The translations under genes were made by a program, and so were the position numbers. Positions 673-34,112 of a stretch of DNA of 64,000 nt are shown here, piece by piece; the first letter of the stretch is position 1; each line of letters starts with the position of its first letter. A model generated the notes under the pieces. It worked only from the letters and a program-made list of their open reading frames with translations. It searched no databases and was not told the DNA's origin. The stretch spans positions 408,075-472,074 of the forward strand of contig CALVUI010000001.1 in the NCBI GenBank assembly GCA_944363565.1. The letters run 5' to 3'. This DNA comes from an uncultured Bacilli bacterium (GTDB lineage: Bacteria > Bacillota_I > Bacilli_A > RFN20 > CAG-826).

Positions 673-1566
673 GTGCCAACCATCGATCTTCCCCTTTCGC
701 GCCTCCAAGAAGTCGAGGGTTTTTACGAGGGAGAAAAAATCGACCTCGTCCCGCCCTACGCCCTGGCTTTTTATAAGGGCGAGGGCTTTACCCTCACCAT
801 CTATCTGAAGAAAGAGGCGGTCCGCCTCTACTTCCAGGGCCCGAAGGCCGATCAGGAAGCCGCCATCTGGGGTGAAGTAAAAGAAACCCCCGGCAAGAAG
901 TCGGCCAAGGCCTTCCGCCTCCTTTACCCGATGGAGGGTAGCGACGAAGTCGGGACCGGCTCCTTCTTCGGGGGCATCGCCGTCGCAGCGGCCCTCGTTA
1001 AGAAAGAAGACCTCCCCTATTTGAAGGAACTCGGGATCACCGATAGCAAGGAAATGGGGGACGAGGCCATCCTCCAGAGGGTCCCGCTTCTGGTCAAAAG
1101 GCTTCCCTATGCCTACTCTTATCTAACTCCCGAAAAGTACAACGAGGTCCACGACAAGTACAACATGAACGCCATCAAGGCCAAGATGCACAATGCCGTC
1201 TTGCTTTCTTTGCTCAAGGACCATCCGGGTGCCCACCTCTACATCGACCAGTTCATCCCCGAGGATTCTTATTACCGTTATCTAAATAACGAAAAGGAAG
1301 TGGCGAGGGACATCGTTTTCTCGATCAAGGGCGAAAAGGCCTTCCCGGCCGTGGCGGCCGCTTCCTGCATCGCCCGTTATTGCTTCTTGAAGAAAATGGA
1401 AAAAATGGACGCCCTCTATGGCGTCCACTTCCCCCAGGGGGCCGGTTCCGAGGTCCTTGATTTCGCCAGGACCTTCTTGGCCTCTCGTCCCGAGGCGGCC
1501 AAACTGACCTGCAAGCTGAACTTCAAGACCTACGAACAGGCCTTAATGAATCCAATACTTCCTTGA
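673..1566 (+). CDS. rnhC: Ribonuclease HIII
   Basis: 297 aa with GSDEVGTGSFFGGIAVAAA...ITDSKEM, the RNase HII/HIII catalytic block, and an N-terminal extension typical of RNase HIII. GTG start. Confidence 0.75.
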   Translation: MPTIDLPLSRLQEVEGFYEGEKIDLVPPYALAFYKGEGFTLTIYLKKEAVRLYFQGPKADQEAAIWGEVKETPGKKSAKAFRLLYPMEGSDEVGTGSFFGGIAVAAALVKKEDLPYLKELGITDSKEMGDEAILQRVPLLVKRLPYAYSYLTPEKYNEVHDKYNMNAIKAKMHNAVLLSLLKDHPGAHLYIDQFIPEDSYYRYLNNEKEVARDIVFSIKGEKAFPAVAAASCIARYCFLKKMEKMDALYGVHFPQGAGSEVLDFARTFLASRPEAAKLTCKLNFKTYEQALMNPILP

Positions 1567-2434
1567 AATAGTCCGGCAAAGGGGCCTCGAATTCCATCTC
1601 CCGCCCGTCGCGGGGATGTTTGAAGACCAGCTTTCCGGCGTGGAGCAACTGGCCATTTTGATAGAGTTTCCGATTGCCTTTCCCGTACAAGGGATCCCCT
1701 TCGACCGGATGGCCGATGTATTCGAGGTGGGCCCGGATCTGGTGGGTCCGGCCCGTGAGGAGCCTTAGTTCCAGGAAGGAATAGTCCTCGAACCGTTCCA
1801 AGACCTTGAAATAAGTGATGGCCTCCTTGCCGTCCTTGCCGACCACCTTGTATTTCAAGGGGTGGCTCGGGTCCCTGGCCAAGGGGGCGTCGATCTTGGC
1901 CTCGTCTTCGGCGATGCTCCCCAAAACGATCGCATAGTAGATCCGGTGCATCGAATGGTCTTCGAGTTGCTTCTTGAGTCCGTCGTAGGCCACCTTGGTC
2001 TTGGCGACGGCGAGTAGCCCTGAGGTGTCCTTGTCGATCCGATGGACGATCCCGGGTCTCGTGGCTTCGCCATAGAGGCTTTGCTCGCGGTAAAGGAGGG
2101 CGTTGGCCAAGGTCCCGGAGGGATGGCCGTTCCCCGGATGGACCAAAAGCCCCTGGGGCTTGTCGATGACCATGAGGTCCTCGTCTTCGTAGACGATCCT
2201 CAGCGGGATTTCCTCCGGAATGAGGGCGGAGACCTTTGCCTCCGGCTCCTCGTAGTCGATGAGGTCGCCTTCCTTGTAACTGGTGGAAGGCTTGGCCAAG
2301 ACCTTGCCGTTGAGGCTCACGAGGCCCTTCTTGATGGCCTCCTTGGCCTTTTCCCGAGGCCAAGTAAGGGACTTGGCCAGGACCTCGTCGAGGCGACGTC
2401 CCACCAAGGAAGAATCAGGCTTTAGGCGCGGCAT
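1523..2434 (-). CDS. rluD: RluA/RluD-family 23S rRNA pseudouridine synthase
   Basis: N-terminal S4 domain, HRIDKDTSGLLAVAKT catalytic-Asp motif and GRTHQIRAHL motif. Confidence 0.85.
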   Translation of the reverse strand: MPRLKPDSSLVGRRLDEVLAKSLTWPREKAKEAIKKGLVSLNGKVLAKPSTSYKEGDLIDYEEPEAKVSALIPEEIPLRIVYEDEDLMVIDKPQGLLVHPGNGHPSGTLANALLYREQSLYGEATRPGIVHRIDKDTSGLLAVAKTKVAYDGLKKQLEDHSMHRIYYAIVLGSIAEDEAKIDAPLARDPSHPLKYKVVGKDGKEAITYFKVLERFEDYSFLELRLLTGRTHQIRAHLEYIGHPVEGDPLYGKGNRKLYQNGQLLHAGKLVFKHPRDGREMEFEAPLPDYFKEVLDSLRPVRRS

Positions 2435-3023
2435 CTTCTTTCTTGCCTTCCTTCCTCTCCTTGATGTAGGCGATGACCAGATAGACGAGGAAGAGGATGA
2501 CCCCGATGGTCAGGCACATGTCGGCGACGTTGAAGACCGGGAAGGGGGAAAGCCAGTTGATGGTCGGACCGTTCGGCCCCCCTTGGAAATAGAACATCAG
2601 AAAGTCGATGACCCCGGAAAAGCCGACCGTCTCAGGCCAATAGAAGGTCCGGTCGATGAGGTTCCCGATGGCCCCGCCCAAACAGAGGGAAATGATGAGG
2701 TTAAGGAAAACGTCATGCTTTTTCCGGTAATGCCAGATGGCAAAGCCAAAGGCGATCGACATGGCCCAGGAAATCAGGATGTAGATGATCCGCATGGCCG
2801 GGACCTCGCCCCCGGCCCCGCCGGCGGCGCCGGTATTGTAGACCAGGGTGATGTAGAAGAAATTCTCGATGACCGGGACCGCTTCCCCGGGCCTTAGGCT
2901 ATTTTGGACCGCCCACTTGGTGGCCTGGTCAAGGACGACAAGCAAAGGGACGAGCCAAACGAAGGTCAGGAAGAAGGGACTGATCTTCTCCCAAAAGGCC
3001 TTCAGCCTTGGCAGCGTTTGCAT
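2415..3023 (-). CDS. lspA: Lipoprotein signal peptidase (signal peptidase II)
   Basis: Four-TM protein with NTGAAGG and FNVADMCLTIG motifs. It overlaps the rluD start by 20 nt. Confidence 0.85.
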   Translation of the reverse strand: MQTLPRLKAFWEKISPFFLTFVWLVPLLVVLDQATKWAVQNSLRPGEAVPVIENFFYITLVYNTGAAGGAGGEVPAMRIIYILISWAMSIAFGFAIWHYRKKHDVFLNLIISLCLGGAIGNLIDRTFYWPETVGFSGVIDFLMFYFQGGPNGPTINWLSPFPVFNVADMCLTIGVILFLVYLVIAYIKERKEGKKEDAAPKA

Positions 3024-5686
3024 AGTTTCCCTTCCTTCAGACCCTCGTAGTGGCGGCGGCAGCGCGGGCAGACCGTGCCCTGGGAGGGCATGACCTTGGC
3101 TTCCTCTTCGACCAATTCGAGCTTGGCGACCCCATATAGGCGCGCCCCTTCCTCGCTTCCGGCCTCCTTGAGGGCGGCCTTGAGCTTTTCGTCAGCGACC
3201 TTCAGATAGAGGTCGGCGTCGGCGAAGGAACCATAAAGCCCCTTGGCCCGTCCTTCTTCCAAAAGCCGGTTGGCTTCCTCGCGGCTCTTCTTGAAGGCCT
3301 CGTAGAGGGACAATACTTCTTCACTTGGCTTCTCGGGTTTTGGCATCCTCTCGAGTTGGAGGGAGCCCTTGTGTTCCTTGAGAGGCAAATTGGCGTAGAC
3401 CTCTTCCATCGTGAAGGGCAGGATCGGATTGAGTAACCGGGCCAGGTCGTAGGCCGCCTGGAAAAGGACGTCCTGGATGGCCTTGCGCCTTGGACTGCTC
3501 GGAGCATCGCAATAGAGGATGTCCTTGCTGATGTCGAGGTAGAAGCCCGAGAGGTCGCTGACCAGGAAGGACATGGCCTTCGAGAGGACCCCGGAGAAGT
3601 CGAAGCGTTCATAGCGTTCGAGGATCTCGCTTTCGCATTCCTTTAGTTTTTCGTAGATGAAGGAATCGGCCAGGGAATATTCGTATTTCCCCTCCTCGTG
3701 GACATAGGCCTGCCCCCCGTCTTGGAGGTTACCCAACAAAAAGCGGAAGGTGTTGCGGAGCTTGCGGTAGGTCTCGCTCACGGCCTTCATGGCCGTCTCC
3801 CCCATTTTGACGTCGCTTCTGAAGTCGACGCTCGAGGAGTAGAGGCGCAGGAGGTCGGCCCCCATTTCGTTGGCGACTTTGCTGGGATCGACGCCGTTGC
3901 CCTTGCTCTTGCTCATCTTCTGCCAGTTCTCGTCCATGACCCAGCCATGGGTCAGGCAGACCTTGAAGGGAGCCTTCCCGGTCAGGGCGACCGAAAGGGT
4001 CAGCGAGGCGTTGAACCAACCGCGGTACTGGTCGTTGCCCTCCAAATAGAGGTCGCTGGGGAAAGGCAAGCCGCGTTTCCTGAGGACCGCGTTCCAGGAG
4101 GAACCGGAGTCGAACCAAACGTCCATGATGTCGGTTTCCTTCCGGAAGTTCCCGTTCGGCGATAAGGCGTTCTTGTAGCCCGGCGGCAAAAGCTCGGCGG
4201 CTGAGAGTTCGTACCAGGCATCGCTTCCCTTTTCTTTGATAAGGTCGGCGATATGGGCGAAGACTTCCTTCTCCAGAATGGGCGAACCGTCTTCGTTGTA
4301 GATGATGGGGATGGGAACGCCCCAGGCCCGTTGGCGGCTGATGCACCAGTCGGTCCGATCCTTGACCATGTTGGCCATCTTCATCTCGCCCCAGGAAGGA
4401 TCCCATTTGACCTTCTTGATCTCGCCAAGGATCTCGTCCTTGATCGGAGCGATCGAGCAGAACCACTGGGGGGTGGCCCTGAAGATCAGGGGGCAGCCGG
4501 TCCGCCAATCGTGGGGGTAGCTATGGACCAGGTCCTCTTCCTTGAGAAGAGCCCCGGCTTCCCTTAGCTCCTCGATGACCTCATCGTTGGCCTTTTCGTA
4601 GAAGAGTCCGTCGATCCGCTTGTCCTCGGGCATGTGGACGATGCCGCGCGAATCGACCGGGCAGAAGGGCTTGATCCCATAACGGAAGCTGACGTTGAAG
4701 TCGTCGACCCCGTGGTCGGGGGCGGTGTGGACGAGGCCGGTGCCGCTATCGTCGGTCACGAAGTCGGCGAGCAAAAACGGCGATTCCCGTTCGTACAAAG
4801 GATGGTGGGCCTTGACCCCTTCGAGCTCGGCCCCCTTGTAGGTGGCGATGAGGCGGCAGTTCGTTAGCCCTAAAGTTTCCTTTAATTTCTCCTCGAGGTT
4901 CTTGAGGAAGACCAAGGTCCCCTTGTCGGTTTCATAGACCCCGTATTCGAAACGGGGATTGAGGGTAATGGCGAGGTTGCTAGGAATGGTCCAGGGGGTC
5001 GTGGTCCAGATCAAAGCCTTGGAGCCTTCCGGCAGCAATCCCTTCCCGTCCTTGATCGGGAAGGCGACGTAGAGGGTCTTGACCGGGACGTCCTTGTAGT
5101 CGATCTCGGCTTCGGCCAAGGCCGATTCGCTGACCGGGGACCAATAGACGGGCTTGACGCCCTTGTAGATGAGGCCCTTGAGGGCCATCTCCCCGAAGAC
5201 CTCGATCTCGGCCGCTTCGAATTCCTTGTCCAAAGTCAGATAGGGATGTTCGTAGTTCCCGAGGACCCCGAGGCGGTGGATCTGATTGAGTTGTCTCTGA
5301 ACCTGGGTAAGGGCGTATTCCCGGCATTTCTTTCGGAATTCGACGATCCCCATCTTCTTGCGGTCGATGCCGCTTTTGGAAAGCTGGACCTCGATCGGGA
5401 GACCGTGGGTGTCGAAACCGAAGATGAAGGGCGTCTCGTAGCCCATCATGTTCTTGTAGCGGACCACGAAGTCCTTCAAGAGGCGGTTCAGCATATGGCC
5501 GCAGTGGATGTCGCCGTTGGCGTAGGGCGGCCCGTCGTGGAGGGTGTAGCGTTCCGGCCCCCGGCCTTCGTTCATCGATTCATACAAATCGAGTTTGTCC
5601 CATTTTTCCAGCAAGGCCGGCTCTTTCTTCGGGAGATTGCCCCGCATCTCGAAAGCGGTCTTGGGTAGTAAAAGTTCCTTTTCCAT
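3002..5686 (-). CDS. ileS: Isoleucine--tRNA ligase
   Basis: 894 aa with HIGH-type (HCGHMLN) and KMSKS (KMSKSKGN) class I signatures, the CP1 editing region and a C-terminal Zn finger (CPRCRRHY...CKRCQG). Confidence 0.95.
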   Translation of the reverse strand: MEKELLLPKTAFEMRGNLPKKEPALLEKWDKLDLYESMNEGRGPERYTLHDGPPYANGDIHCGHMLNRLLKDFVVRYKNMMGYETPFIFGFDTHGLPIEVQLSKSGIDRKKMGIVEFRKKCREYALTQVQRQLNQIHRLGVLGNYEHPYLTLDKEFEAAEIEVFGEMALKGLIYKGVKPVYWSPVSESALAEAEIDYKDVPVKTLYVAFPIKDGKGLLPEGSKALIWTTTPWTIPSNLAITLNPRFEYGVYETDKGTLVFLKNLEEKLKETLGLTNCRLIATYKGAELEGVKAHHPLYERESPFLLADFVTDDSGTGLVHTAPDHGVDDFNVSFRYGIKPFCPVDSRGIVHMPEDKRIDGLFYEKANDEVIEELREAGALLKEEDLVHSYPHDWRTGCPLIFRATPQWFCSIAPIKDEILGEIKKVKWDPSWGEMKMANMVKDRTDWCISRQRAWGVPIPIIYNEDGSPILEKEVFAHIADLIKEKGSDAWYELSAAELLPPGYKNALSPNGNFRKETDIMDVWFDSGSSWNAVLRKRGLPFPSDLYLEGNDQYRGWFNASLTLSVALTGKAPFKVCLTHGWVMDENWQKMSKSKGNGVDPSKVANEMGADLLRLYSSSVDFRSDVKMGETAMKAVSETYRKLRNTFRFLLGNLQDGGQAYVHEEGKYEYSLADSFIYEKLKECESEILERYERFDFSGVLSKAMSFLVSDLSGFYLDISKDILYCDAPSSPRRKAIQDVLFQAAYDLARLLNPILPFTMEEVYANLPLKEHKGSLQLERMPKPEKPSEEVLSLYEAFKKSREEANRLLEEGRAKGLYGSFADADLYLKVADEKLKAALKEAGSEEGARLYGVAKLELVEEEAKVMPSQGTVCPRCRRHYEGLKEGKLCKRCQG

Positions 5687-5695
5687 GACTTCCTC

Positions 5696-6787
5696 CTAGT
5701 CTTCGCTCAGGAAATCGGGCAAGACGTCCTCGACGATTTCCTCGGCCCCACTATGGGAGGCCTCCGGGAGGGGCGTCTCCTCCTCGACCCGGGGCCTGAG
5801 GCCCGGTTCGATCGGCTGCAAGATCCCCTTGCCCCCGTTTTCGAAGTGGGAGGCGATGACGGAAACGATGATGGTGTCTTCGAGTTGGGAATTGATGGAG
5901 ACCCCGAACTTCATGTCCAGTTCCCCGCCGGCCATGTCCTTGATCCGCCCGACGCAGTCCTGGGCCTCATAGAGGGTGACCCCGGTCCCGCAGGTGACGG
6001 CGCAGATGGCCTTCTTGGCCCCCGTGATCTTGGCTTCGAGCAAAGGATTGTTGATGGCATTGTCGGCGGCCTGGTCGGCCTTCTTGGGCCCGCGGCCCAT
6101 CCCAAAGCCGATGAGGGAGATGCCGCTCCCCTTGAGGGTATTGCGGACGTCGGCGAAATCGAGGTTGATGAGGGCCGGGACCAGAATCAAATCGGTGACG
6201 GTCCTCACGCTTTGGGCCAAGACGGCGTCGCTTTGGCTGAAGGCCTCGCTGATGGGGGCGTTGCCGCTGGAAATAAGCAAATTGTCGTTGCTCACCACGA
6301 TGATGGAGTCGGCGGCGTCCATGAGGTTGGAGAGCCCCTCGACGCTATGGGCGATCCGCTTTTCCCCTTCGAAACCGAAGGGCCGGGTCACGATGGCAAC
6401 GGTCAGGGCCCCGCATTCGCGGGCGATCGAGGCAATGACCGGGGCGGCCCCGGTTCCGGTCCCCCCGCCCATCCCGGCGGCGATGAAGACCATGTCGGCC
6501 CCCGAGACGATTTCCTTGAGGTCGTCGGCCGAGGCTTCGGCCGCTTGCTTGCCGACGGCCGGATCGCCCCCGGCGCCCAAACCCCGGGTGATCTTTTCGC
6601 CGAGGACCAGGCGGTTGGGGGCCTTGGAGGTCGAAAGGGCTTGCTTGTCGGTATTGGCGACCCAGAAGTCGACGTTTTGGATTTCCTCGTCGATCATGCG
6701 GTTGACGGCGTTGTTGCCGGCCCCGCCGACCCCGATGACCACGATGCGGGCCACCGCTTCGAAATTGTCTAAATCCTGATCAATCAT
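5696..6787 (-). CDS. ftsZ: Cell division protein FtsZ
   Basis: Tubulin signature GGGTGTGAAPVIA and an acidic C-terminal tail. Confidence 0.95.
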   Translation of the reverse strand: MIDQDLDNFEAVARIVVIGVGGAGNNAVNRMIDEEIQNVDFWVANTDKQALSTSKAPNRLVLGEKITRGLGAGGDPAVGKQAAEASADDLKEIVSGADMVFIAAGMGGGTGTGAAPVIASIARECGALTVAIVTRPFGFEGEKRIAHSVEGLSNLMDAADSIIVVSNDNLLISSGNAPISEAFSQSDAVLAQSVRTVTDLILVPALINLDFADVRNTLKGSGISLIGFGMGRGPKKADQAADNAINNPLLEAKITGAKKAICAVTCGTGVTLYEAQDCVGRIKDMAGGELDMKFGVSINSQLEDTIIVSVIASHFENGGKGILQPIEPGLRPRVEEETPLPEASHSGAEEIVEDVLPDFLSED

Positions 6788-6810
6788 GTTGGTTCCTTCT
6801 TTCTAAGACC

Positions 6811-8010
6811 CTATTCGCCCCGGGTCAAGGTCGAGAGGCGGTGCCCGTCGTCCCAGAGGGATCCCCGGTAGGTCGATGAGATGGAGAGCATGCCGAGCAA
6901 GGAAGCCATCGAAGGATCGACGGCCCCGACGGCGCGCGGTATGTAACGGATGAGGGGGTGGCTGCCCCGCGAGGTATCGAGGAGCTTTTCGATGCCGTAG
7001 AGGAGGCTTCCTCCTCCCCCGAGGACGATCGGGACTCCCAGCAGTTCCCTCGAGGCCTCGGTCCCTTGGGCCTGGCTGAGGGTCAGGATGGCATTGCTCA
7101 GATAGGTCGAGAAATCACGGAAGTATTCCTCGATGACGGCATTGAGGTCCTTTTGCCTGACCTTGAGGTTCCCTTCTTCACCCCGGCAAAGGATCGGCTG
7201 GTAAAGGGTGTTCCTGGTGTCGTAGCCGAAGTCTTCCTTGAGGTTCTTGGCTTCTAAGGGCGAAAGGCCGAGCAAGGAAACCAGACGGTCGTTCAGGTCG
7301 TCGCCCCCGTAATGGAAGACGCAGCTCGAATAAGGGCTGCCTTCGCTAAGGAGGCTGACCGAGGTCAGACGGGCCCCGATGTCGACGTAGAAGGAGGTCT
7401 TCGGCATCCTAGGATCGGCCTCGAGCAAGGTGGCGAAGAGAAAGGAATCGATGGCGGTCCTATTGACCCGGAAGCCGGCCTTGGCCACCGTCCGCTTGTA
7501 GGAGGAGACCAGTTTCTCCGGCAGGGTATGGACCTTGGCCTGGACCGAAAGGGAGACGGCCTTTTCCCCGATCGGGGGGTTCTTGTAATGGTCCTTGCCG
7601 TCAAGAGTGAAGAAATCGGGGACGATGTCGACGGTGGCGTTCCCGCCCGGGACGGCCTCGCGGTTGACGAGGGCCAGGACATTGCTGACGTCGAGGGTCG
7701 AGACGCTATCGGAGACGGTCTGGCTGGTCTTGACGTTTTGGTAAATCTCCATCCCGATGCAGGGCAAGACCAGGGACAGGGAATCGGCGTTGACCTTGAG
7801 GGAAAGGCCTTCGTCCTTGATCGAGGAAAAAGAGGCGATGACGCGGGCCACTTCCCCTTCGTCCTTGATTTCCCCGGCTTCGACCAGGCCAGGGGGAAGG
7901 GGACGTTCGTCGTAATACAAAACGGCCGGATCCTTGGAAGAGAGGCCGATCATGAACTTCACTTTGTCGTCGGCTATTTCCAGCACGGCGGAAGGGCGTT
8001 TGGCATCCAT
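6811..8010 (-). CDS. ftsA: Cell division protein FtsA (actin-like ATPase), divergent
   Basis: 399 aa, immediately upstream of ftsZ, with an actin-fold C-terminal GGGGSLL.GI motif. The N-terminal phosphate loop is diverged. Confidence 0.65.
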   Translation of the reverse strand: MDAKRPSAVLEIADDKVKFMIGLSSKDPAVLYYDERPLPPGLVEAGEIKDEGEVARVIASFSSIKDEGLSLKVNADSLSLVLPCIGMEIYQNVKTSQTVSDSVSTLDVSNVLALVNREAVPGGNATVDIVPDFFTLDGKDHYKNPPIGEKAVSLSVQAKVHTLPEKLVSSYKRTVAKAGFRVNRTAIDSFLFATLLEADPRMPKTSFYVDIGARLTSVSLLSEGSPYSSCVFHYGGDDLNDRLVSLLGLSPLEAKNLKEDFGYDTRNTLYQPILCRGEEGNLKVRQKDLNAVIEEYFRDFSTYLSNAILTLSQAQGTEASRELLGVPIVLGGGGSLLYGIEKLLDTSRGSHPLIRYIPRAVGAVDPSMASLLGMLSISSTYRGSLWDDGHRLSTLTRGE

Positions 8011-8081
8011 GGCGAAATTTTAATCTAGGCTATGCCTAAAGGGAAAGGAAATCGGTGGTTTTTGGTAATTTTCCGGTAAAG

Positions 8082-8109
8082 AAAACCCGCCGGGAGGCAT
8101 ACCGGCGGG
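8082..8109 (-). terminator. Rho-independent terminator or attenuator between the small membrane ORF and ftsA
   Basis: Minus-strand hairpin CCCGCCGG-tatgcctc-CCGGCGGG followed by TTTT. Confidence 0.45.
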
Positions 8110-8129
8110 GAAAGGAGGATGGAAACGGT

Positions 8130-8366
8130 CTAAAGTGGCAATTCGAGACGGTAGTCCTGACTGGTCGACGAACTGGTTTCCTCGTCCTTTGGGGCGGAAG
8201 TGAGCTGGGCGGCCGCCGCTTCCTCGGCCATCCGGTAGGAAATGCCGACCGGGATGGCGCTGACGCCTAGCAATGCCACGCCCAATAGACCGAAGAGGGC
8301 GAGGCGGCGGAACATGAAGTAACCGCGGCGGTGTCCGGTTTTTTCGAGTTTGTCTTTCATGGTCAT
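8130..8366 (-). CDS. Small single-TM membrane protein, possibly an FtsL-like division protein
   Basis: 78 aa with one predicted TM helix. Its start overlaps the rsmH stop (ATGA). It sits where ftsL occurs in mraZ-rsmH-ftsL clusters. Confidence 0.4.
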   Translation of the reverse strand: MTMKDKLEKTGHRRGYFMFRRLALFGLLGVALLGVSAIPVGISYRMAEEAAAAQLTSAPKDEETSSSTSQDYRLELPL

Positions 8367-9274
8367 TTCCTTTCTATCGCCCTGAGTTTCGCGCTTTTGG
8401 CGCGGGGATTGGCGATCATCTCTTCTTCGCTGGGAAGGATCGGTTTCTTGGTGAGGAGACGATAGGGGGCTTCTTCGGGCAATGGTCCGTCGATGCGGCT
8501 CCCCTCGATGACGGAGAGACTCTTGAAGGCATCCTTGACGAGGCGGTCCTCGAGGGAATGGAAGGAAATGACGGCCATGACGCCGCCTTCCCTGAGGAAG
8601 GAGGGCATTTCCTTCAGCATGGTTTCGAGGCTATCGAGTTCCCCGTTCACTTCGATGCGGATGGCCTGGAAGGTCTGTTTGGCCGGGTGGCCCTTTTTGA
8701 GGAGGCTTTTCTTGCTCTTCCCCTCCTTGATGGCCTCGACGAGGTCGAAGGTCGTCTTGAGGGGGCGGTGCTTGACGATGGAATGGGCGATGGAACGGGC
8801 TTCCCGTTCTTCGCCATAGAGGTAGATGAGGCGCGAGAGGGCGGCTTCCTCGTACTCGTTGACGACCTTTTCGGCCGTGAGGGGACTGGAAGTATCCATC
8901 CGCATGTCGAGGGGACCGTCGTAGCGGTAGCTGAAGCCCCGCTCCCCCTCGTCGAACTGGGGCGAGGAAACGCCGAGGTCGGCGATGATGCCATCGACGC
9001 CGTCGATTCCCATTTCCATGAGGATACTGGGGGCTTCGGCGAAGTTGGCGTGGATGAGGTCGAAGTTCTGGTAGCCGTTTTCGAGAAGGCGTTCCCGGCT
9101 TTCCCTGAGGGCTTCTTCGTCGAGGTCGAAGGCGATCAGGCGGCTGCCCTTGGCTTTTTCGAGGATGGCTAGCGAGTGCCCGGCCCGTCCGAGGGTCAGA
9201 TCGACGTAGGTTCCCTCTCTAGAAGGAAGGAGGCCGATGGTTTCCTCTAAGAGGACCGACTTATGCCCGGACAT
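8363..9274 (-). CDS. rsmH: 16S rRNA (cytosine1402-N4)-methyltransferase RsmH (MraW)
   Basis: 303 aa SAM-dependent methyltransferase with the conserved MraW fold. Directly follows mraZ. Confidence 0.9.
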   Translation of the reverse strand: MSGHKSVLLEETIGLLPSREGTYVDLTLGRAGHSLAILEKAKGSRLIAFDLDEEALRESRERLLENGYQNFDLIHANFAEAPSILMEMGIDGVDGIIADLGVSSPQFDEGERGFSYRYDGPLDMRMDTSSPLTAEKVVNEYEEAALSRLIYLYGEEREARSIAHSIVKHRPLKTTFDLVEAIKEGKSKKSLLKKGHPAKQTFQAIRIEVNGELDSLETMLKEMPSFLREGGVMAVISFHSLEDRLVKDAFKSLSVIEGSRIDGPLPEEAPYRLLTKKPILPSEEEMIANPRAKSAKLRAIERK

Positions 9275-9276
9275 CC

Positions 9277-9741
9277 CTATTCCCCTTTCGCGAGAGAGGA
9301 GGCCAGTTCCTCGAAGTCTTCGCCTTCACTAACGTAGGCTTCGTAGGTTTCCTTCTTCCAGATCTCGAAGTGGTCGAGGGCCCCGAGCAAGAGGGCTTCC
9401 TTTTCGAGTCCGAGCTTTTCGAGCAGTTCCTTCCGGATGGCCAGGCGTCCGTGTCCGTCGACCTCGAGCTTTTCGGCGCTCCCGAAGGATAAACGCAAGA
9501 GCTTCCGGGCTTTGGGATCGAGGAAGTCGTAGGCTTCGAACTTTTCGACGAGGGCGTCGAAGGCGGCAGCGGGATAGACGGAGAGGCAACCTTCGTAACC
9601 ACGCATGAGATAGTAGGGCCCCTTCTCCTCGCCGACTAGGCGCGGCGGGAGCTGGAGGCGTCCCTTCTCATCGAGGGTCCGGTTGTAGGTTCCGATGAAT
9701 TTTCCCACTTTTTCCCACCTGACGCATAGAGGATAAACCAT
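9277..9741 (-). CDS. mraZ: Transcriptional regulator MraZ. The ORF-track start at 9741 is probably too long; the likely true start is GTG at about 9708.
   Basis: Duplicated MraZ-type motif (LDEKGRLQLP ... VDGHGRLAIR). The first 11 codons overlap two perfect GTGGGAAAA direct repeats, the MraZ box. Confidence 0.8.
   Translation of the reverse strand: MVYPLCVRWEKVGKFIGTYNRTLDEKGRLQLPPRLVGEEKGPYYLMRGYEGCLSVYPAAAFDALVEKFEAYDFLDPKARKLLRLSFGSAEKLEVDGHGRLAIRKELLEKLGLEKEALLLGALDHFEIWKKETYEAYVSEGEDFEELASSLAKGE
9700..9718 (-). promoter_or_regulatory. Two direct repeats GTGGGAAAA with 10-bp phasing, a candidate MraZ operator
   Basis: Minus strand GGTGGGAAAAAGTGGGAAAATTC. This matches the GTGGG-type MraZ-binding repeats found upstream of mraZ in other bacteria. 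Confidence 0.45.
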
Positions 9742-9898: not shown

Positions 9899-9926
9899 AA
9901 AGAAAAGCGACCGCTTCGACGGTCGC
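9899..9926 (-). terminator. Rho-independent terminator downstream of the DUF177-like gene, upstream of the mraZ promoter region
   Basis: Minus strand GCGACCG-tcgaag-CGGTCGC followed by TTTTCTTTT. Confidence 0.55.
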
Positions 9927-9948
9927 CTGTCCTCTTTTTGGTACGCTT

Positions 9949-10416
9949 TCAGATCTTGTCCTCGAGAATGTCGAAGGGCGAAGGACCAGCTTCCCCTTCT
10001 TCCCCGGCATCGACCTGTTCGACCCCTTCGGGCAACTGGCTCCCGGGTCTAAGGATCTTCATCGGTAGGAGGCTATGGAGCATCCGTAAAGCCAGGTCAT
10101 CGAGGTCGATGGTCGGCCCGGGCAAGATATAGCCCTCCCCGATCTCGTCTTCTTCCTCGAGGATGTCGGCCTCATCGAAGAAGGCAATGGTGCTGAGGAA
10201 ACGGACCCCGTCGTAGCTATCCTCCAAGACGACGTCGGCTTCGACGTCCATCTCGACGTGGGGATATTCGTCCCGGCGGTAGGCCTCGCCCTTGTAGGTC
10301 AGACGCTTGACTTCGATGATGGGATAAGGGGTTTTGTATTCCCCGATGTCCCCGCCTTCCCGGCTGAAGGAAAGGCGCCGGCCCTTGGCGAGGGCGCTTT
10401 TGGCGAGTTTGTTCAT
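9949..10416 (-). CDS. Acidic DUF177 (YceD)-like protein lacking the usual Cys cluster
   Basis: 155 aa with a C-terminal pattern (IDLDDLALRMLHSLLPMKIL...SPFDILEDKI) that resembles DUF177 proteins. Its start overlaps the pheT stop by 4 nt. Confidence 0.4.
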   Translation of the reverse strand: MNKLAKSALAKGRRLSFSREGGDIGEYKTPYPIIEVKRLTYKGEAYRRDEYPHVEMDVEADVVLEDSYDGVRFLSTIAFFDEADILEEEDEIGEGYILPGPTIDLDDLALRMLHSLLPMKILRPGSQLPEGVEQVDAGEEGEAGPSPFDILEDKI

Positions 10417-13848: not shown

Positions 13849-14100
13849 AGCGCTCCCAATAAAAAAGACGGCCCAGGAACGGATTGATCCGCGGTGCCAT
13901 CCTGCTTCCCCGCCTTATTGGCGGGACTCTCTAGGGCCTTAACGGGGCCGGCGCCCGTCTCTCGGCGGGACCCTCCGGGGCGAACTTTCGCCGGCTTCTT
14001 CGGGGGCGGTTCCACTCTCTGCCCCTCCCTAGGACCGAAGACACGGTTACTCTTCCCTTTCAACGGGTAAACCAATGTTAGGACAATTGAGAAGAAAAGG
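13849..14100 (-). promoter_or_regulatory. T-box riboswitch leader of pheST (cis-regulatory RNA)
   Basis: On the minus strand: AGAGAG (stem I AG-box), UUC specifier candidate (AAAGUUCG), T-box core GGAUGGCACCGCGG (plus 13889-13902), then a U-tract GUCUUUUUU, the SD GGGAG and the ATG. Confidence 0.6.
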
Positions 14101-17078: not shown

Positions 17079-19706
17079 CTAGTCACGGACCAAGAGGGCC
17101 GAGTGGGAAGGAAGGTCATAGAGGCCGTCGCTTCTCTTCACGCCCGCCCCGTTATAGGAGGCCAGGATCTCGGTCCCGATCCCCTCCCCGTACTTGGCAT
17201 CTTGGTTCGAGAAGTTGACCAAGACATGGAAGACGTCGTCGCCGAGGATCCGTTGGAAGTTGAGGATGTAGGGGTTGCCGTCCCAGCCGAAGGGAACGAA
17301 GTTCCCGCGGATGAGGGCCGGTTCGCTCCCCTTGGCCTTGGCGAAGGCGGCGAGGGCGTTGTAATGGCTATTGGGGTCTTCCATCTGGGCATAGGCCGGG
17401 GTCACGAGGTCGGAGGCGTTGATTTCGTCGAGCTCCACCCCGACTTCGGCCCCGTTGATCCCATAGTGGGGCCTGGTGGCCTCTTCGTCCCACTTCATCG
17501 GCTGACGGTAATAGAGGTCGGCGTAGTCGCTGTCCTCGTTCTTCCCCTCCGGGAAGTTGCCGCTCATGCCGAGTTCGTCGCCGTAGTAGATCCAGGTCAG
17601 GCCCGGGAGCATCAGCTGGGAAATCTGGACGCAGGTCGCTAATTCGTCGAGACTTTGGTAATTGCTGGCCGTGACCGTCCCCTGGGCCGCGATTCCGTCC
17701 CCGTTGAAGGCATTGGCCGCCACCCGGTTGATGGAACGGGCGATGTCGTGGTTGGAGGTGAAGCTCCCGACGATGGCCGAGTATTCGGCCGAACCGGTCT
17801 TCGGCATCGCCTCCCCGCCCCGGTAGCGGTTGTAGGCGCTCATGGCCTCGCGGAGGTTCCAGTGGCCCCCGTAGGGAACCGAGTGGGTCTTGTTGCCGCC
17901 CAAAGCGGCATCGCTAGAGGCACTATAGGGGGTCCCGCTCACGGTGCTCCCCAGATAGGTGGCAGCCGAGCCCTGGTAGGGGCCGGAAACCCCGTTCCGG
18001 TAGGCTTTGGCGGCCAGACTGGTGAGGTTGAAATAACTATAGAAGTCAAAGAGGGAGTCGAAGCCCTCGTAATAGGGGGCCACGTGGTAGGCATGGCCGT
18101 CGAAGTTCTCCCCGACGATGAAGGCGTTGGGGTACTTGTCCTTGATGGCGGCGTTTAATTCCCGCCAGAAATGGAGGTTCTTGGTCAGGTCGCTGCTGTA
18201 GTTCTCACCAGTGGCCGGGGTATCGATGACGTAGGTGTCGTTTTCGTCATAAGCCACCTCGTCTTCCATGTAGATGTGCTTGACGGCGTCCATCCTGAAG
18301 CCGTCGACCCCGATCTCGCACCAATTGAGGGCGATGGCCTCGACCGCCGCCCTGGTCCCGGTGTAGCTGAAATTGAGTTCGGGCATCGAGGAACCGAACT
18401 TGGCGTAGTAGCTATAGACCCGGTCCCCATAGGGATACCAGCAGTTTTCGATCGTGATGTCTTCCCCGGTCTCGTGGTTGGCCCAGCGGTAATAGCCCCG
18501 CATCGTCTCGTCCAACTGGGCCGAATCGACGAACCACTTGTTCCCGGTCGAGGTGTGGTTGATGACGAGGTCCATGATGACGGCCATGCCCCGGCTATGG
18601 GATTCGTCGAGCAAGAGCTTGTAGTCGGCCATCGCCGTCTTCTCGCTGACCTTGCCGCCGTTCTCGGTCCCGGCCGGCGAGACCTTGCTACCGAACTTCG
18701 GGTCGACGGTCAGGTAGTCGGTGATGTCGTAGCCGTGGTAGGAGTCGCTCAATTGAATCGGGGTAAGCCAGATGACGTCGACCCCGAGGTTCTTGATGTA
18801 GTCGAGATGCTGCACGATCCCGTAGATGTCGCCGAAACCGTCGGCGTCGCTATCGGCGAAGGAGGAAACCATGATCTGGTAACCGGTCCCGGCCCCGTTT
18901 TCGAAGAGCTGGTCGCCCTTTAGGAATTCCGGTGAGGTTTCCTTGATCGGAGCGGTCGTCGAGAAATCGACGTCGTTGTACTTGGCGTTGTTGTAGGTTT
19001 CGTTCTTGCCATCGTCCCCTTCGAAGGGATCCTCGGGTTCGGCGACCGGGGTCTTGGTGACGCTTTGGACCAGGTCCTGGGTCACGAAGGCGTGGTAGGA
19101 GGTGACGCCCCTTTCCTCGTCGACGAGGGCAAAGTCGTCGACGGTGACGTAGAGGTTGCTCCCGTCGTTGGTCCAAAAGCCCGAGCCGGTCCTAGTTTCG
19201 CTTTTGACGATCTGGAGGCCGATCTTTTCTTCCTTGGAGCCGAGTTCGTGGTTGGCCGCGAAGTCGATGCGGTCCCCGCCGATCTTCTTGTCGGCCTCGT
19301 TCCAGCCGCCGTCGTAGTCGCTCTTGGTGAGGTCGATGTCGACATAGACGTAACCGAACTCGTCGATGACGGGATTGCCGGAAGCGGTCTTGAGGTCGTC
19401 GGTCCCCTGGCTCCTCCCCTTCCAGTCGAACTTGACGCCCTGGCCTTCGTTGGGCCGATAAGGCCAGCACCAGACGTCCCAGTCGTTGTAGGACTCGGCG
19501 CTGGCGTCAAAACGCAGGTAATGGTAATAGAAATGGCCTTCCTCGCTGGTCTTGGCGAGGTTTTCCATATAGGCGTCGACCTCGTCCTGGGTATGGGGGC
19601 CGGTATCGACGGAAGTGCTCGATCCCGTCGGCCCGCAGGCCGTGAGGCCCATAGTCAGGACGAAACCCCCGAGCAAGAGGGGCAAACTGGCTTTCGATAT
19701 TTTCAT
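17079..19706 (-). CDS. GH13 alpha-amylase-family glycoside hydrolase, extracellular lipoprotein
   Basis: Signal peptide with lipobox LTAC (MKISKASLPLLLGGFVLTMGLTAC). GH13 regions (LTPIQLSDSYHGYDITDY, GVDGFRMDAVKHI, FIVGENF, FTSNHD). Start chosen at ATG 19706 with AAGGAGG 6 nt upstream. Confidence 0.85.
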   Translation of the reverse strand: MKISKASLPLLLGGFVLTMGLTACGPTGSSTSVDTGPHTQDEVDAYMENLAKTSEEGHFYYHYLRFDASAESYNDWDVWCWPYRPNEGQGVKFDWKGRSQGTDDLKTASGNPVIDEFGYVYVDIDLTKSDYDGGWNEADKKIGGDRIDFAANHELGSKEEKIGLQIVKSETRTGSGFWTNDGSNLYVTVDDFALVDEERGVTSYHAFVTQDLVQSVTKTPVAEPEDPFEGDDGKNETYNNAKYNDVDFSTTAPIKETSPEFLKGDQLFENGAGTGYQIMVSSFADSDADGFGDIYGIVQHLDYIKNLGVDVIWLTPIQLSDSYHGYDITDYLTVDPKFGSKVSPAGTENGGKVSEKTAMADYKLLLDESHSRGMAVIMDLVINHTSTGNKWFVDSAQLDETMRGYYRWANHETGEDITIENCWYPYGDRVYSYYAKFGSSMPELNFSYTGTRAAVEAIALNWCEIGVDGFRMDAVKHIYMEDEVAYDENDTYVIDTPATGENYSSDLTKNLHFWRELNAAIKDKYPNAFIVGENFDGHAYHVAPYYEGFDSLFDFYSYFNLTSLAAKAYRNGVSGPYQGSAATYLGSTVSGTPYSASSDAALGGNKTHSVPYGGHWNLREAMSAYNRYRGGEAMPKTGSAEYSAIVGSFTSNHDIARSINRVAANAFNGDGIAAQGTVTASNYQSLDELATCVQISQLMLPGLTWIYYGDELGMSGNFPEGKNEDSDYADLYYRQPMKWDEEATRPHYGINGAEVGVELDEINASDLVTPAYAQMEDPNSHYNALAAFAKAKGSEPALIRGNFVPFGWDGNPYILNFQRILGDDVFHVLVNFSNQDAKYGEGIGTEILASYNGAGVKRSDGLYDLPSHSALLVRD

Positions 19707-19732
19707 TTTCATCCTCCTTGAAGGCAAAAGAA

Positions 19733-19765
19733 AGGGGGCCGCTAGAAAATCAGCGGACCCCCCTA
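19733..19765 (-). terminator. Hairpin plus U-tract downstream of the surface-protein gene
   Basis: Minus strand GGGGGTCCGCT-gattttct-AGCGGCCCCC followed by TTTCTTTTG. Confidence 0.4.
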
Positions 19766-19775
19766 GAGAACATGG

Positions 19776-21047
19776 TTAGTCCCGGGCTCCGGCCCGACGG
19801 CGTTTGTAGACGGCGGCCACCCCGGCTCCGATGCCGGCGAGGCCGATGAAGAGGCTCCCGGCCAAAACAGCCTTGTCCTGGTCCTCGGTTAGTCCGAGGA
19901 AAGCAGCCGAAGAAGAGGCGAAGTTGCTCTCTTCGACCTTCATGGCGTTGATCTTGTCAAAAGCCGAAACGGTCGCGACCTTGCCTCCGTCATGGTCGGT
20001 ATCCATCGAGGCATAGTCCTTGATCATGGTGTTCCGCAAGACGGATTCGTCGACGTTCTTGAACCAATAATCGTAGAGTTCCTGGGCATTGCCGCTCCCG
20101 TTATCGAGGGACGGCGAGCAGGTGTCGCGGACTTCTAGAACGGCTTCGATCACTCCCCCGTCGGTCTTCAACGAGTTGTCGATGGCACCGGTGGCCACGG
20201 TCTTGCCATTGTCATAGACGTAGTGGATGCCGAGGTTGTCGCCGCTTTGGTAGACGGCACTATCGGTAGCGTTTTCGAAAGCCCCGCTATACTCATCGTA
20301 GGTTTTGATTTGCCAATCTTTCCCAACGGCTTCAACCGGCACGTCGAAAGCGGCCAACCAGTTATTACCGGCCATATCGGAATCGGTGTATTGAGGCCAT
20401 AGACTTGCCCCGATTTCGACATCGGTTCCGGAATCATCCCAATAATGGAAGGTGTGGAACTTTCCCGAGGTCTCGGAATTGCGGCGTTTGACGAAGAAGC
20501 GGAACGTTTCCTCGTCGGCGTTGCGGTCCACGATCGTATATTTCCAAGTGATGTTCGTACCCCAGCCTTGGCAATCGTAACTAGCGACGACCGAGAGGTT
20601 TTCAATTGGAGAAACCACGTAATTAGGCAGGGAAATATCCGCTGATTGGCCATTCCAGCCGTCAACCTTATTGGTAATGATTATATGGTCTGGGAATACG
20701 CCGTCCTTTTTTTCGATTTTGACATCGACGTACGATCCTTCGTCATCGGTTTGGATCGGGAAAGCCGCTAAATTTTCGCCCGTGCTTCCCCAATTGGTCA
20801 GGGAACCTGCGCCATTCTGCCACATATGGATACCGACTCGGCCGTTGAACCAACTAGGTTCCGAAACATAGAGCTTGAATTCAACGTATTGGGAATCCGA
20901 GGCCTCAGCCCCGACGTAGTCGGTGTCCATGTATTCCTGGGCCGCGATCCCGGCCCCGGTGACGGCGGCGCAGGCCATGACCCCCCCGAACAAAGTCAAC
21001 ATCAGTGATTTGTTCATAGTGGCGATCCTCCTTTCCGAAGTGTCCAT
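19776..21047 (-). CDS. Cell-surface protein with a signal peptide, two internal aromatic-rich repeats (putative starch/carbohydrate-binding) and a C-terminal TM anchor
   Basis: N-terminal signal (MNKSLMLTLFGGVMACAAVTG). Repeated W/Y-rich beta-type modules (HMWQNGAGSLTNWGS... / HYWDDSGTDVEIGASLWPQ...). C-terminal hydrophobic helix followed by KRRRAGARD. Confidence 0.5.
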   Translation of the reverse strand: MDTSERRIATMNKSLMLTLFGGVMACAAVTGAGIAAQEYMDTDYVGAEASDSQYVEFKLYVSEPSWFNGRVGIHMWQNGAGSLTNWGSTGENLAAFPIQTDDEGSYVDVKIEKKDGVFPDHIIITNKVDGWNGQSADISLPNYVVSPIENLSVVASYDCQGWGTNITWKYTIVDRNADEETFRFFVKRRNSETSGKFHTFHYWDDSGTDVEIGASLWPQYTDSDMAGNNWLAAFDVPVEAVGKDWQIKTYDEYSGAFENATDSAVYQSGDNLGIHYVYDNGKTVATGAIDNSLKTDGGVIEAVLEVRDTCSPSLDNGSGNAQELYDYWFKNVDESVLRNTMIKDYASMDTDHDGGKVATVSAFDKINAMKVEESNFASSSAAFLGLTEDQDKAVLAGSLFIGLAGIGAGVAAVYKRRRAGARD

Positions 21048-21066
21048 ATGCGGATATACAAAAACG

Positions 21067-21080
21067 TGTAACCGCTTACA
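21067..21080. promoter_or_regulatory. Catabolite-responsive element (cre)-like palindrome TGTAACCGCTTACA
   Basis: Perfect fit to the cre consensus TGWAANCGNTNWCA. It lies 20-50 nt upstream of the surface-protein gene start. Confidence 0.5.
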
Positions 21081-21138
21081 GATGGCAGTATTTTAACCCT
21101 CCGGAAACTTTAATCAAGAGAAGCGCTGGGAAAAGACG

Positions 21139-21164
21139 AAAAAAGAGGGGGCTATAGCCCCCTC
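21139..21164 (-). terminator. Rho-independent terminator after the pullulanase gene
   Basis: Palindrome GAGGGGGC-tata-GCCCCCTC with a minus-strand TTTTTT. Confidence 0.6.
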
Positions 21165-21180
21165 CTTCTTTTTGGAGCAA

Positions 21181-24100
21181 TCAGGAAACGCGCTTGAGGA
21201 GCAGAAGTTCGCTTCTGGCGATCCCGATGATGCCGTTATCGATGTTGAAGGTGGTGTCGGCGGTATGTTTGTCGTTCGAGCTATAGATGACCTCGAGGGT
21301 CCCGTTTCCGATCCCGAGATTCGTCCATGGATTGAGGGTCCGGCCGCCGAGCATCACGTAGTACTCCTCCCCTTCGGGGGCGAAGACGGCCCCGGTCGAG
21401 GTCCGCATGTTGACCCCTTCGCAGAGGTTGCCCCAGACCCAGGCGTGCTGGTCGTCCTTGATGTCGGTCTCGTAGTCCATCCCGAAGACGTGGCCCATCA
21501 TCTCGTTCCTGAGGTGGAAGGCCTCGATGGTCTTGAGGTAGGCCTCGTGATAGGTGACCTTGCGGTCCCACTTGAAGGAGTTGCACTCGTCACCGTAGTT
21601 GTAGGAGTTGCGGACTAACATCGTCCCATCCTCGAGCTTGAAGGCATCGGTATTGCTGGGATCGGTGGACTGGAGGTTTTCGATGACGGCGTAATAGGGA
21701 TCATCGGGCGAAAGGAGCTTCTGGCGGAAGATCTCGTCGCCCCCGTTGAGGAAGGCGATCCCTTGGCTGAGGGCCATGGCGGCGTTGAGGGCCACGGTTC
21801 CCCAGATGGCGTCCTCATTGTCTTCGGCCGAGGCCATCCCCGAGCCCATGCAGAAGTTCATCTGGTCGTAGAGGGTGTAGTTGTCGTGGCAGGCCACGTA
21901 GTTGACGGTCTGGGCCGGGTTGGCGCCCGGGGCCCGTTCGTTGATGCCGAGGAACTGGGCGGCCGCTTCCTTGGCCTTGTCGCCGACGTGCTCGGCCCCC
22001 TGGGTCAGGAAGCCGTAGTCGGGCTTGCCCCCTTCCCACTGGGTATTGCCCTTGAGGGCGTCGCGGCCCCCGTCGTTGAAGCAGCCGACGCTCCCCTTGC
22101 CGTTATCGTAGAGCTTGCTGTAGACGTGGGAGTTGCTGGCCTCTTCTTCGGCCGGTAAACCGGTCCCGTCGGGATTCCCGAAGGCCCCGTTCCAGCCCTC
22201 GCCATAGACGACGATCTGGGGATCGATGTCATAGAGGGCGTCCTTGACCGCCCGCATGGTGGTGACGTCGAGGCAGCCCATGAGGTCGAAGCGGAAGCCC
22301 TTGATGCCGTATTGCTCGGCCCAGAAGCACACCGAATCGACGATGTACTTGCGGACCATGGGACGCTCGGAGGCCGTGACGTTGCCGGTCCCGGAACCGT
22401 CGATGTAGGCCCCTTCGGCGTTCTTGCGGAAGAAGTAGTCGGGAATGACCTTGTTGAAGCAGTTGTTGCCGACGCTGGCCAGGTGGTTGTAGACCACGTC
22501 CATGATGATGCGGATGCCCTTGTCGGCGAAGGCCTTGATGAGGGTCTTGTATTCGAGGATGCGGGCCAAGGGATCGAAGGGATCGCTGCTGTAGCTGCCT
22601 TCCACCACGTTGTAGTTGAGGGGGTTGTAGCCCCAGTTGAAGGTCGGCTCCAAAATGACGTTGCCCTCTTCGTCCTCCACCGTCCTTTCGTCGTTGTCCT
22701 GGTCGAAGACCGGGAGCAACTGGACGGCGTTGACCCCGGTTTCCACGATGTGGTCGAAGCCGGTCTTGACGGTCAATGTCTTCCCTTCTTCCGTGGTCCC
22801 GGTATAGGTGGTGCCACTTTCGGCGAAGGCCAGGTAGGTCCCGGGCTTATTTTCCCCGACCCAGGTTTCGTCCATCGTCAGGTCGCGGATGTGGGCTTCG
22901 TAGACGCTTAGTTCGTTGGGGGCGGAAATCGCGTATTCAGTTTCCAGCGTTTCGATGGCCTCGTCGAAGCCGGCGGGTTCGGCATCCTCGGCCGCCCAGG
23001 CCGCCTCGTCCATGACGTAGCCCCTAAGGCCGTTGATGCCGGCGGCGTGGGCGTAGGGATCGATGGTTTCCTGGCTCCCGGAGGCCGTCGTCACGTAGTA
23101 GGTGTAGTAACGCCTGGTCGGCATGGCCCCGTCGGAGACGTAGGTCCAAACCCCGTTGTCCCCCGGGGTCATTTCCCGGGTCACATGGTTGTTGTAGCCG
23201 TTGACCACCTTCCCGTCCCGGTTGATTTCGGCCGTGGCGCCCACGACGTAGAGGAAGAGCTGGACCCGGCTGGCGGTCGGGGCCCAAAGCTTGTACTGGG
23301 CCTTGCCTTCCTCGTTGATGGTAAAGCCGAGGTCATCGCCCTCGTAGACGTATTCGGTTTGGAACTTCTCGGTGTCGTAGAGGTAGTTGAAGGAAGCCGA
23401 GGCCGACTTGACCTTCGAGGTGTCCTGGGCGAAGGTACATTCGAGGACGTAGTTGACCATCGGGTCGGCGTCTTCCTCAAGGGTAATCGTCAGTTCCTTG
23501 GCGTTCGGGGTACCGCTGGTGATGAGGTAGTCCTCCTTTTCCAAAGGGAAGGCCCCGTCAAGGGAGACGTAGTAGGCATTGTCATAGCCGTAGAGGCGAT
23601 AGGAGGCGATCTTCCCGATGTCTTCTTCCTCGCGCCCTTCTTCCGCCGTCCCGGTCCCGCGGACCGTCAAGGTGTTCCAGGAGGAGAAGTAGGCATCCCC
23701 CACCCGGTCGCCGAGGGCATCATTGCGGGCACTATAGGTATCGATGTTCCCGCCGGTTCCCTGGACGGCGTAGACGGTGATCATTTCCCGTCCCTGCCCG
23801 TCGGTCGTCTTGTTGGAGACGAACTTGTTGAAGGGGACGGCGATGTCCTTGCTTTGCCCGGCCCAGCTCCCGGCTTCCTTGACGATGAAGCTGATGGAAG
23901 CCAGTTCCATCCCCCCGAAGGGGACGGCGGACAGCTCGAGGTCGTAGTAGACCCCGTAGTCGTCGGGCGTCAGCTGGTTGGTGAAGCCGACTTCCCCGAG
24001 GGCGTTGCCGTCGACCCCGGCCGCCCAAATCCAAAGGCGCTTGGTGGCATAGTCGTTTTGGTCGTTGTGGTAGTAGATGCGGACGATCCCACCGAAGGCC

Positions 24101-24264: not shown

Positions 24265-24286
24265 GTTTTTCTCCTCTAAAAAAGGC

Positions 24287-25909: not shown

Positions 25910-25912
25910 TGA

Positions 25913-29511: not shown

Positions 29512-29588
29512 AGCGTTTCTCCTTTTCTTTCTTCCCGATAAAAGGAAACCCGGGGCGGGCGGGCCGCCCCGGGGTTTTGGCGTTTGGC

Positions 29589-30956: not shown

Positions 30957-31087
30957 TAAATTAGCTCCTTTCCAAATTGTTTGGCGACACGCTCGGCAAA
31001 GAGCCGCGTCGCTTTGCAATTTAATCTCAACATGGCTATATATTAAGCGAGGACGGACGAGTTGCAAGAGGAAAAGTAAGCGGTTTC

Positions 31088-31459: not shown

Positions 31460-31611
31460 TTCCTATTCTTCACCTAACCTTTGCTAACGGCGGCCCCACG
31501 AGGTGGGCGCCGGACCTGCGTGATTATACACCAAGAACGGCCTTGGAGGAGAAAATTTTTGTCAAGTCCCTCCTTCCCCTCCTTCTTGCTAGAATTAGGG
31601 CGGAGGAAATT

Positions 31612-33835: not shown

Positions 33836-33865
33836 GCCCTATATCCTAAACCATTTCGTATAAAT

Positions 33866-33886: not shown

Positions 33887-33892
33887 CTTCTT

Positions 33893-34078: not shown

Positions 34079-34112
34079 GGTTCTTCCTTTCTTGCCGCCA
34101 TATTCCACCAAA

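Follow-up and report, generated by a model that had tools for sequence, protein, structure and literature searches.

Gene organization of the division cluster

We analysed a 64,000-nucleotide stretch of contig CALVUI010000001.1 (assembly GCA_944363565.1) from an uncultured Bacilli bacterium; this whole stretch is referred to as the window, and coordinates are positions in it. Our subject is its division and cell wall (dcw) cluster, for which a first-pass annotation had proposed a minimal arrangement of mraZ, rsmH, a small membrane open reading frame (ORF), ftsA and ftsZ, with ileS-lspA-rluD directly behind ftsZ. Our analysis bore out this layout: all five ORFs were located on the minus strand, and the identities of mraZ, rsmH, ftsA and ftsZ were supported by hidden Markov model (HMM) matches or a structural model. 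The cluster begins with mraZ (9277-9741; PF02381, 8.5e-27, in two stretches), which encodes its transcriptional regulator, followed by rsmH (mraW; 8363-9274; PF01795, 6.4e-105, full length), encoding the 16S rRNA m4C1402 methyltransferase. Next comes the small ORF (8130-8366), encoding a bitopic membrane protein of 78 aa with one transmembrane (TM) segment; gene callers place its start at 8360, giving 76 aa. It is followed by a divergent ftsA (6811-8010), identified by weak HMM matches and by the FtsA fold of its AlphaFold model, and by ftsZ (5696-6787), whose product contains the Tubulin and FtsZ_C domains and passes TIGR00065 (363.3 bits, cut-off 295.2). After a gap of 10 nt, the ORF listing and Pfam matches place ileS (3002-5686), then lspA and rluD, the three genes spanning 1523-5686 on the minus strand.

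No ftsL, pbp, mur, mraY, ftsW or divIB/ftsQ gene was found between rsmH and ftsZ, and the 10-nt gap between ftsZ and ileS holds neither sepF nor divIVA. The locus thus has the features of a Mollicutes-type minimal dcw cluster, in which mraZ comes first with tandem operator boxes and rsmH, ftsA and ftsZ follow without intervening wall genes. Upstream, the cluster is bounded (9905-10416, minus strand) by a 155-aa acidic ORF coupled to pheT and then by a terminator-like hairpin (9905-9928). This acidic ORF gave a faint YceD/DUF177 match in a relative, and the order pheS-pheT-ORF-mraZ is conserved in relatives.

Conservation of the arrangement and lineage placement

Related loci were collected from GTDB data with one genome per species, in which FtsZ identity did not exceed 79% among the matches listed. 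The order pheS-pheT-mraZ-rsmH-(small ORF)-ftsA-ftsZ-ileS-lspA-rluD recurred in at least about 28 other species with GC contents of 23-56%. The gene order also agrees over 21 kb with that of a sister species, L086, which has 59% GC and is 73% identical across six proteins. Among the matches listed, the closest FtsZ loci were titled 'uncultured Mollicutes bacterium', 'Candidatus Enteromonas sp.' and 'Bacilli bacterium', and all were gut-derived. The best species-level relatives showed 57-73% identity on housekeeping proteins. In a neighbour-joining (NJ) tree of six proteins, the window and L086 were joined with 100% bootstrap support inside a moderately high-GC subclade with 94% support; the Candidatus Enteromonas locus (L008) grouped with this subclade in the FtsZ+FtsA NJ tree only. 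Candidatus Enteromonas (GTDB UBA733), the nearest named relative among the matches listed, belongs to the family CAG-826 of the GTDB order RFN20, and its species Candidatus Enteromonas pullicola, described in 2021, has a genome of 1.2 Mb with 57.43% GC (PMC8035907).

The GC content of the window is 58.1%, and that of third codon positions is 77%. The first-pass annotation was correct that GC is high but overstated the novelty, since a member with 57.4% GC had already been published, as had the prediction of a wall-less state. TGA is the commonest stop codon (26 of 52 genes), long ORFs are intact under table 11, and no recoding of UGA as tryptophan, a trait of Mycoplasmatales and Entomoplasmatales, was found in the window. 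RFN20 reads TGA as a stop codon (PMC7301438); the stop usage of the window matches RFN20, not Mycoplasmatales, and the lineage is not a classical Mollicute. Four related loci (L005, L021, L022 and L031) carry clearly wrong NCBI names (Oscillospiraceae, Slackia isoflavoniconvertens, Alistipes shahii and Acutalibacteraceae) and are nonetheless RFN20-type, with 29-43% GC.

Operator boxes and transcription signals

Two MraZ operator boxes were identified by pattern match at 9703-9718 on the minus strand (GTGGGA-AAAA-GTGGGA, with a 10-nt period), where they overlap the ribosome-binding site and a GTG start codon. GTGGDAN4GTGGDA matched nowhere else in the 64 kb, where 0.03 matches were expected. 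At least two boxes occupy the same place in 23 of 29 related loci, 17 of which have three. The boxes agree with the published form of MraZ boxes, GTG(G/T) with a 6-nt spacer (PMC12957436). The 143-aa MraZ read from the GTG at 9708 scored 115.3 bits against TIGR00242 (cut-off 98.35), with residues 4-138 aligned to positions 2-138 of 144. Because this form aligns end to end with the MraZ model, the ATG at 9741 that opens the longest ORF is probably not the real start, and translation probably begins at GTG 9708; in relatives, mraZ starts lie right after the boxes. A consensus scan of the window gave no convincing minus-strand promoter match for mraZ; relatives have clear -35/-10 elements upstream of the MraZ boxes.

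A terminator scan detected a GC hairpin between the small ORF and ftsA (8086-8109, minus strand), consisting of 8 G-C pairs and then TTTTCTTT. Of 26 related loci, 18 have a hairpin of -8 kcal/mol or below with a T-rich tail in the corresponding place. It would presumably act as a terminator, and its position suggests two transcription units, mraZ-rsmH-small ORF and ftsA-ftsZ(-ileS). In such a scheme, MraZ would bind both GTGGGA boxes, located at the start of its own gene, and set the transcription of mraZ-rsmH-small ORF, and the hairpin would partly insulate ftsA-ftsZ(-ileS).

An Rfam scan found no T-box before ileS in the window (gap 5687-5695) and none in L086. Two other relatives have a T-box between ftsZ and ileS (L003, 11185-11383; L004, 11164-11364; 64-76 bits). 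From these loci, the high-GC lineage seems to have lost the leader in front of ileS, with the gene itself joining the ftsAZ unit. Elsewhere in the window, T-box leaders were located upstream of pheS (13872-14072, minus strand; 73.4 bits, E 4e-16) and alaS (63379-63560, minus strand; 37.4 bits, E 1e-6); the default Rfam scan reported no RNA family in the window because both score below the gathering score of 93. Several low-GC relatives in which this gap is larger carry a secreted Endonuclease I-domain protein of 554-1036 aa between ftsZ and ileS (L010, 11136-12872; L011, 11149-12813; L025, 11155-14265; L026, 5195-7447; L027, 11106-12905).

A clade-specific small membrane protein family

Within the clade, 27 of 28 loci carry the small ORF; no locus outside the clade does. 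Its conserved start is MKDKL at 8360, and alignment of 23 orthologues revealed a conserved N-terminus (MKDKLxKxxHKxxYY), a TM segment and an (A)(I/V)P motif, followed by an external tail that is short, acidic, and variable or missing. Every protein recovered by profile searches is 53-105 aa long, matches from residue 1-4 onwards and lacks an annotation; there are at least 334 clusters at the 90% identity level and 315 representatives at the 50% level. No Pfam or NCBIfam match was obtained for the small ORF itself. The ORF lies against or across the rsmH stop codon, which makes translational coupling of the two genes probable. These results indicate that the small ORF represents an undescribed, clade-specific small protein family in the division operon.

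We considered whether the ORF could be a degenerate remnant of the ancestral cluster's FtsL that has itself become functionless. Its place immediately behind rsmH is that of FtsL, and its single TM segment behind a basic N-terminus suggests a bitopic topology with a cytoplasmic N-terminus, as in FtsL. Even at a Pfam E value of up to 10, however, none of the 23 members matched FtsL or DivIC, and NCBIfam, word-indexed and exhaustive profile searches returned only unannotated proteins of 53-105 aa, so a link to FtsL was not supported. Conservation lies in the N-terminus and TM segment, whereas the region corresponding to the coiled coil of FtsL is short, variable or missing, and UBA1709, the other minimal RFN20 family, lacks the ORF. 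Retention in 27 of 28 loci, together with 315 diverged representatives, argues for selection, and we regard an FtsL remnant as unlikely.

This clade-specific membrane protein probably takes part in division. We tentatively suggest, as a long shot, that wall-less RFN20 bacteria may have in it a divisome component not described before. It might, for example, serve as a tether to the membrane or as a regulator, docking FtsA or FtsZ through its invariant N-terminus. Such a component would fit a clade whose FtsA has another conserved tail in place of the amphipathic helix and whose locus lacks sepF; on the other side, SepF or another anchor may be encoded elsewhere in the genome.

A divergent FtsA without the membrane helix

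The FtsA of the window scored 64.5 bits against TIGR01174, below the cut-off of 175.85, which marks it as a divergent member. It gave a Pfam SHS2_FTSA match (2e-6), and its best sequence match in the PDB was FtsA (3wt0, 3e-9). The AlphaFold2 model has a mean predicted local distance difference test (pLDDT) score of 84.8, and its top 19 Foldseek matches in the PDB were all FtsA, with TM-scores of 0.71-0.85, including structures from S. aureus (0.80-0.85), Vibrio, E. coli and Thermotoga. The model and the Pfam match together reveal an actin-like fold with the FtsA-specific 1C (SHS2) subdomain.

No C-terminal amphipathic membrane helix was found in this protein: residues 381-399 form a disordered tail with at most 3 large hydrophobic residues per 11-mer. 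A comparison of C-termini showed a conserved disordered tail, YRGSLxD..h..LxR, where the helix would be; the Erysipelotrichaceae FtsA used for comparison ends in ...KAIENFFSEEE. FtsZ has kept its C-terminal FtsA-binding peptide (EDVLPDFLSED). We picture FtsZ as polymerising and being held by FtsA through this retained peptide, with division proceeding by membrane constriction and no septal wall synthesis. Both the regulation outlined above and division by membrane constriction alone are proposals.

Probable loss of the wall genes

We then examined how far the absence of wall genes extends. The queries were Pfam-verified PBP2B, MurE, MurF, MraY, FtsW, MurG, FtsQ and FtsL sequences taken from a Clostridia locus (L074), and tblastn returned zero matches in the 64-kb window. 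Pfam scans of all ~54 window genes revealed no peptidoglycan gene, and the called genes in the 10-kb flanks on either side included no wall gene. The earlier statement that the cluster lacks mur, pbp, ftsW and ftsQ genes is therefore upheld by tblastn, Pfam scans and flanks alike.

Walled relatives provided the contrast. A locus from UBA7581 (L016, 48-12627; FtsZ 69% identical), the nearest walled relative among the matches listed, has pbp-murE-mraY-murD-ftsW-murG-murB-divIB-ftsA-ftsZ-spoIIGA-sigE intact, and it is probably a member of a walled, spore-forming RFN20 family. Erysipelotrichaceae loci likewise keep mraY, ftsW and murG. Because the walled RFN20 relative keeps the full cluster, the window shows a clean reductive deletion. 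An ancestral mraZ-rsmH-ftsL-pbp-murE-mraY-murD-ftsW-murG-murB-divIB-ftsA-ftsZ-spoIIGA-sigE...ileS order would have been reduced to mraZ-rsmH-(small membrane ORF)-ftsA-ftsZ-ileS by the loss of two inner blocks. One, ahead of ftsA, held the wall genes, and the other, behind ftsZ, the sporulation and ylm/sepF/divIVA genes; loss of the second would have joined ftsZ to ileS. Read in this way, ileS-lspA-rluD behind ftsZ is the ancestral Bacillus-type downstream neighbourhood from which the intervening genes have gone.

Published predictions point in the same direction. CAG-826 and CAG-288 have been predicted to be non-sporulators deficient in peptidoglycan, with no wall genes in most species, and CAG-449 and CAG-631 to be walled spore-formers (PMC10868615, 2024). 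We conclude, with a probability of about 0.8, that this division cluster has a reduced, Mollicutes-type form and belongs to an uncultured RFN20 gut bacterium with high GC, most likely of CAG-826 near Candidatus Enteromonas, in a lineage that has lost peptidoglycan. Genome-wide absence of wall genes is something we infer from the published family-level predictions. The first-pass proposal of a wall-less, Mollicutes-type Firmicute descendant with high GC is thus supported by lineage, literature and the walled RFN20 control, with the qualification that this is not a classical Mollicute. The proposal is right but largely known, since publications already cover the lineage, the wall-less state predicted for it and its members with high GC. 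The dcw locus itself is undescribed in the cited RFN20 papers, and PMC10868615 does not mention ftsZ or ftsA.

Several points weigh against this conclusion. In Gram-positive cocci, wall genes can be located at a distance from ftsAZ, so their absence from one locus is by itself no proof of a wall-less cell; the DNA inspected amounts to ~84 kb, against a genome size of roughly 1.2-1.5 Mb. CAG-826 is the most likely family by proxy, through NJ trees of 2-6 proteins and the NCBI title of L008 at 62-70% identity. The accompanying signs cited in the first-pass annotation were present, namely four lipobox lipoproteins, one protein with a C-terminal TM anchor and no LPXTG motif in the window proteins, but they are not specific to wall-less cells; the lipoproteins and the lack of LPXTG are weak evidence for that state. 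Moreover, the published wording is 'most species', not all (PMC10868615), mraY is present in 14.3% and murG in 5.2% of RFN20 genomes (PMC7301438), and RFN20 phenotype statements in the literature are genomic predictions, with no isolate imaged in the cited papers.

The small share of the genome inspected, the ~14% of RFN20 genomes with mraY, the 'most species' wording and the existence of walled families within RFN20 all favour a walled organism with its peptidoglycan genes at other sites, on the model of the split dcw clusters of Gram-positive cocci; the compact stretch would then be a product of rearrangement and not of loss. In split clusters, rsmH stays with ftsL-pbp-mraY and ftsAZ with murG-divIB, whereas here rsmH runs into the ftsA region. 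Wall genes are also locally absent in all of the at least about 28 species with the same order, the walled RFN20 relative L016 has its cluster intact, and the window groups with families predicted to be wall-less. We therefore consider this explanation quite improbable. An assembly or binning artefact (a chimeric join or collapsed deletion), conceivable because the source is a metagenome assembly and several related metagenome-assembled genomes (MAGs) bear wrong NCBI names, has a negligible chance, since identical FtsZ and neighbours occur on 18 independent contigs of the same species (ENA, Logan and NCBI; several samples) of up to 591,731 bp, the order is repeated in the 73%-identical L086 and in the other species, and GC is uniform over the window.

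Our preferred reading, loss of the wall genes, lets one follow at a single locus the collapse of a Bacillus-type division and wall cluster on wall loss, with a walled relative of the same order as the 'before' state, and it indicates that a lineage can lose its wall without low GC and without recoding UGA. On both counts it agrees with the published RFN20 genome-content predictions and overturns nothing. The new details are the MraZ boxes at the GTG start, the conserved hairpin before ftsA, the divergent FtsA without a helix and the clade-specific small ORF family. Two of these are modest leads, the unannotated small membrane family in the division operon and the FtsA without its usual membrane helix, and both could inform how the FtsZ ring is anchored in wall-less cells.

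Other genes in the window

A starch/pullulan utilisation cluster occupies 17079-31067 (minus strand), with three GH13 enzymes (882, 1027 and 540 aa), a solute-binding protein and two ABC permeases, one of them unusually long (925 aa). The GH13 enzymes and the solute-binding protein have lipoprotein signal peptides (LTAC, MAGC, LSSC and LAGC). At 19776-21047 (minus strand), a 423-aa protein without Pfam or NCBIfam match has a hydrophobic segment at its N-terminus and, at its C-terminus, a TM anchor with KRRRAGARD behind it; this end resembles a sortase sorting signal, but without LPXTG. The only sizeable plus-strand gene in its neighbourhood (53014-55005) encodes a 663-aa adenylate-forming enzyme fused to a phosphopantetheine carrier, which is fatty-acid-ligase-like and gave no DltA match. 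A ComEC-like protein (734 aa, with a metallo-beta-lactamase domain) and a ComEA-like protein (SLBB and HhH domains) are encoded at 56645-59478 (minus strand), which suggests a capacity for DNA uptake. ORFs without Pfam match include one of 517 aa (46136-47689, minus strand; NCBIfam also negative), one of 232 aa (31474-32172) and membrane ORFs at 33191-35140 that adjoin a family-2 glycosyltransferase (32243-33190).

Comparison with known division clusters

Full Bacillus-type clusters share their ends with the window: rsmH at the start, as in the Clostridia locus L074 (mraZ lies beyond the DNA read there), and ftsA-ftsZ at the end. Between these ends, L074 has ftsL-pbp-murE-murF-mraY-ftsW-murG-ftsQ, all absent from the window.

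The mycoplasma dcw cluster is mraZ-mraW-MG_223(ftsA*)-ftsZ (PMC8475190), and a Spiroplasma ixodetis locus (L054) reads mraZ-rsmH-ftsA-ftsZ. The window shares with Mycoplasma and Spiroplasma the gene set and order, the absence of wall genes between rsmH and ftsA, a highly divergent FtsA, and MraZ boxes of the GTG(G/T) type with a 6-nt spacer just upstream of mraZ (PMC12957436). There are two boxes in the window and three or four in Mycoplasma and Spiroplasma. In this comparison, only the window has the conserved 76-aa membrane ORF and the terminator-like hairpin between rsmH and ftsA. In addition, the window uses TGA as a stop codon, has 58% GC and carries ileS-lspA-rluD behind ftsZ, whereas TGA encodes tryptophan in Mycoplasma and Spiroplasma. 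The loss of the wall in RFN20 is described as an independent event (PMC10868615).

Within RFN20, loci of the family UBA1709 (L061 and L032) share with the window the order mraZ-rsmH-ftsA-ftsZ...ileS-lspA-rluD and the absence of mur genes. They differ in having no small membrane ORF and an FtsA that ends right after the actin fold, and L032 is the only locus examined with sepF after ftsZ. With CAG-826/CAG-288 and Candidatus Enteromonas, represented by gut MAGs, the window shares the standard genetic code and a locus free of wall and sporulation genes, and its high GC is similar to that of Candidatus Enteromonas pullicola (57.4%).

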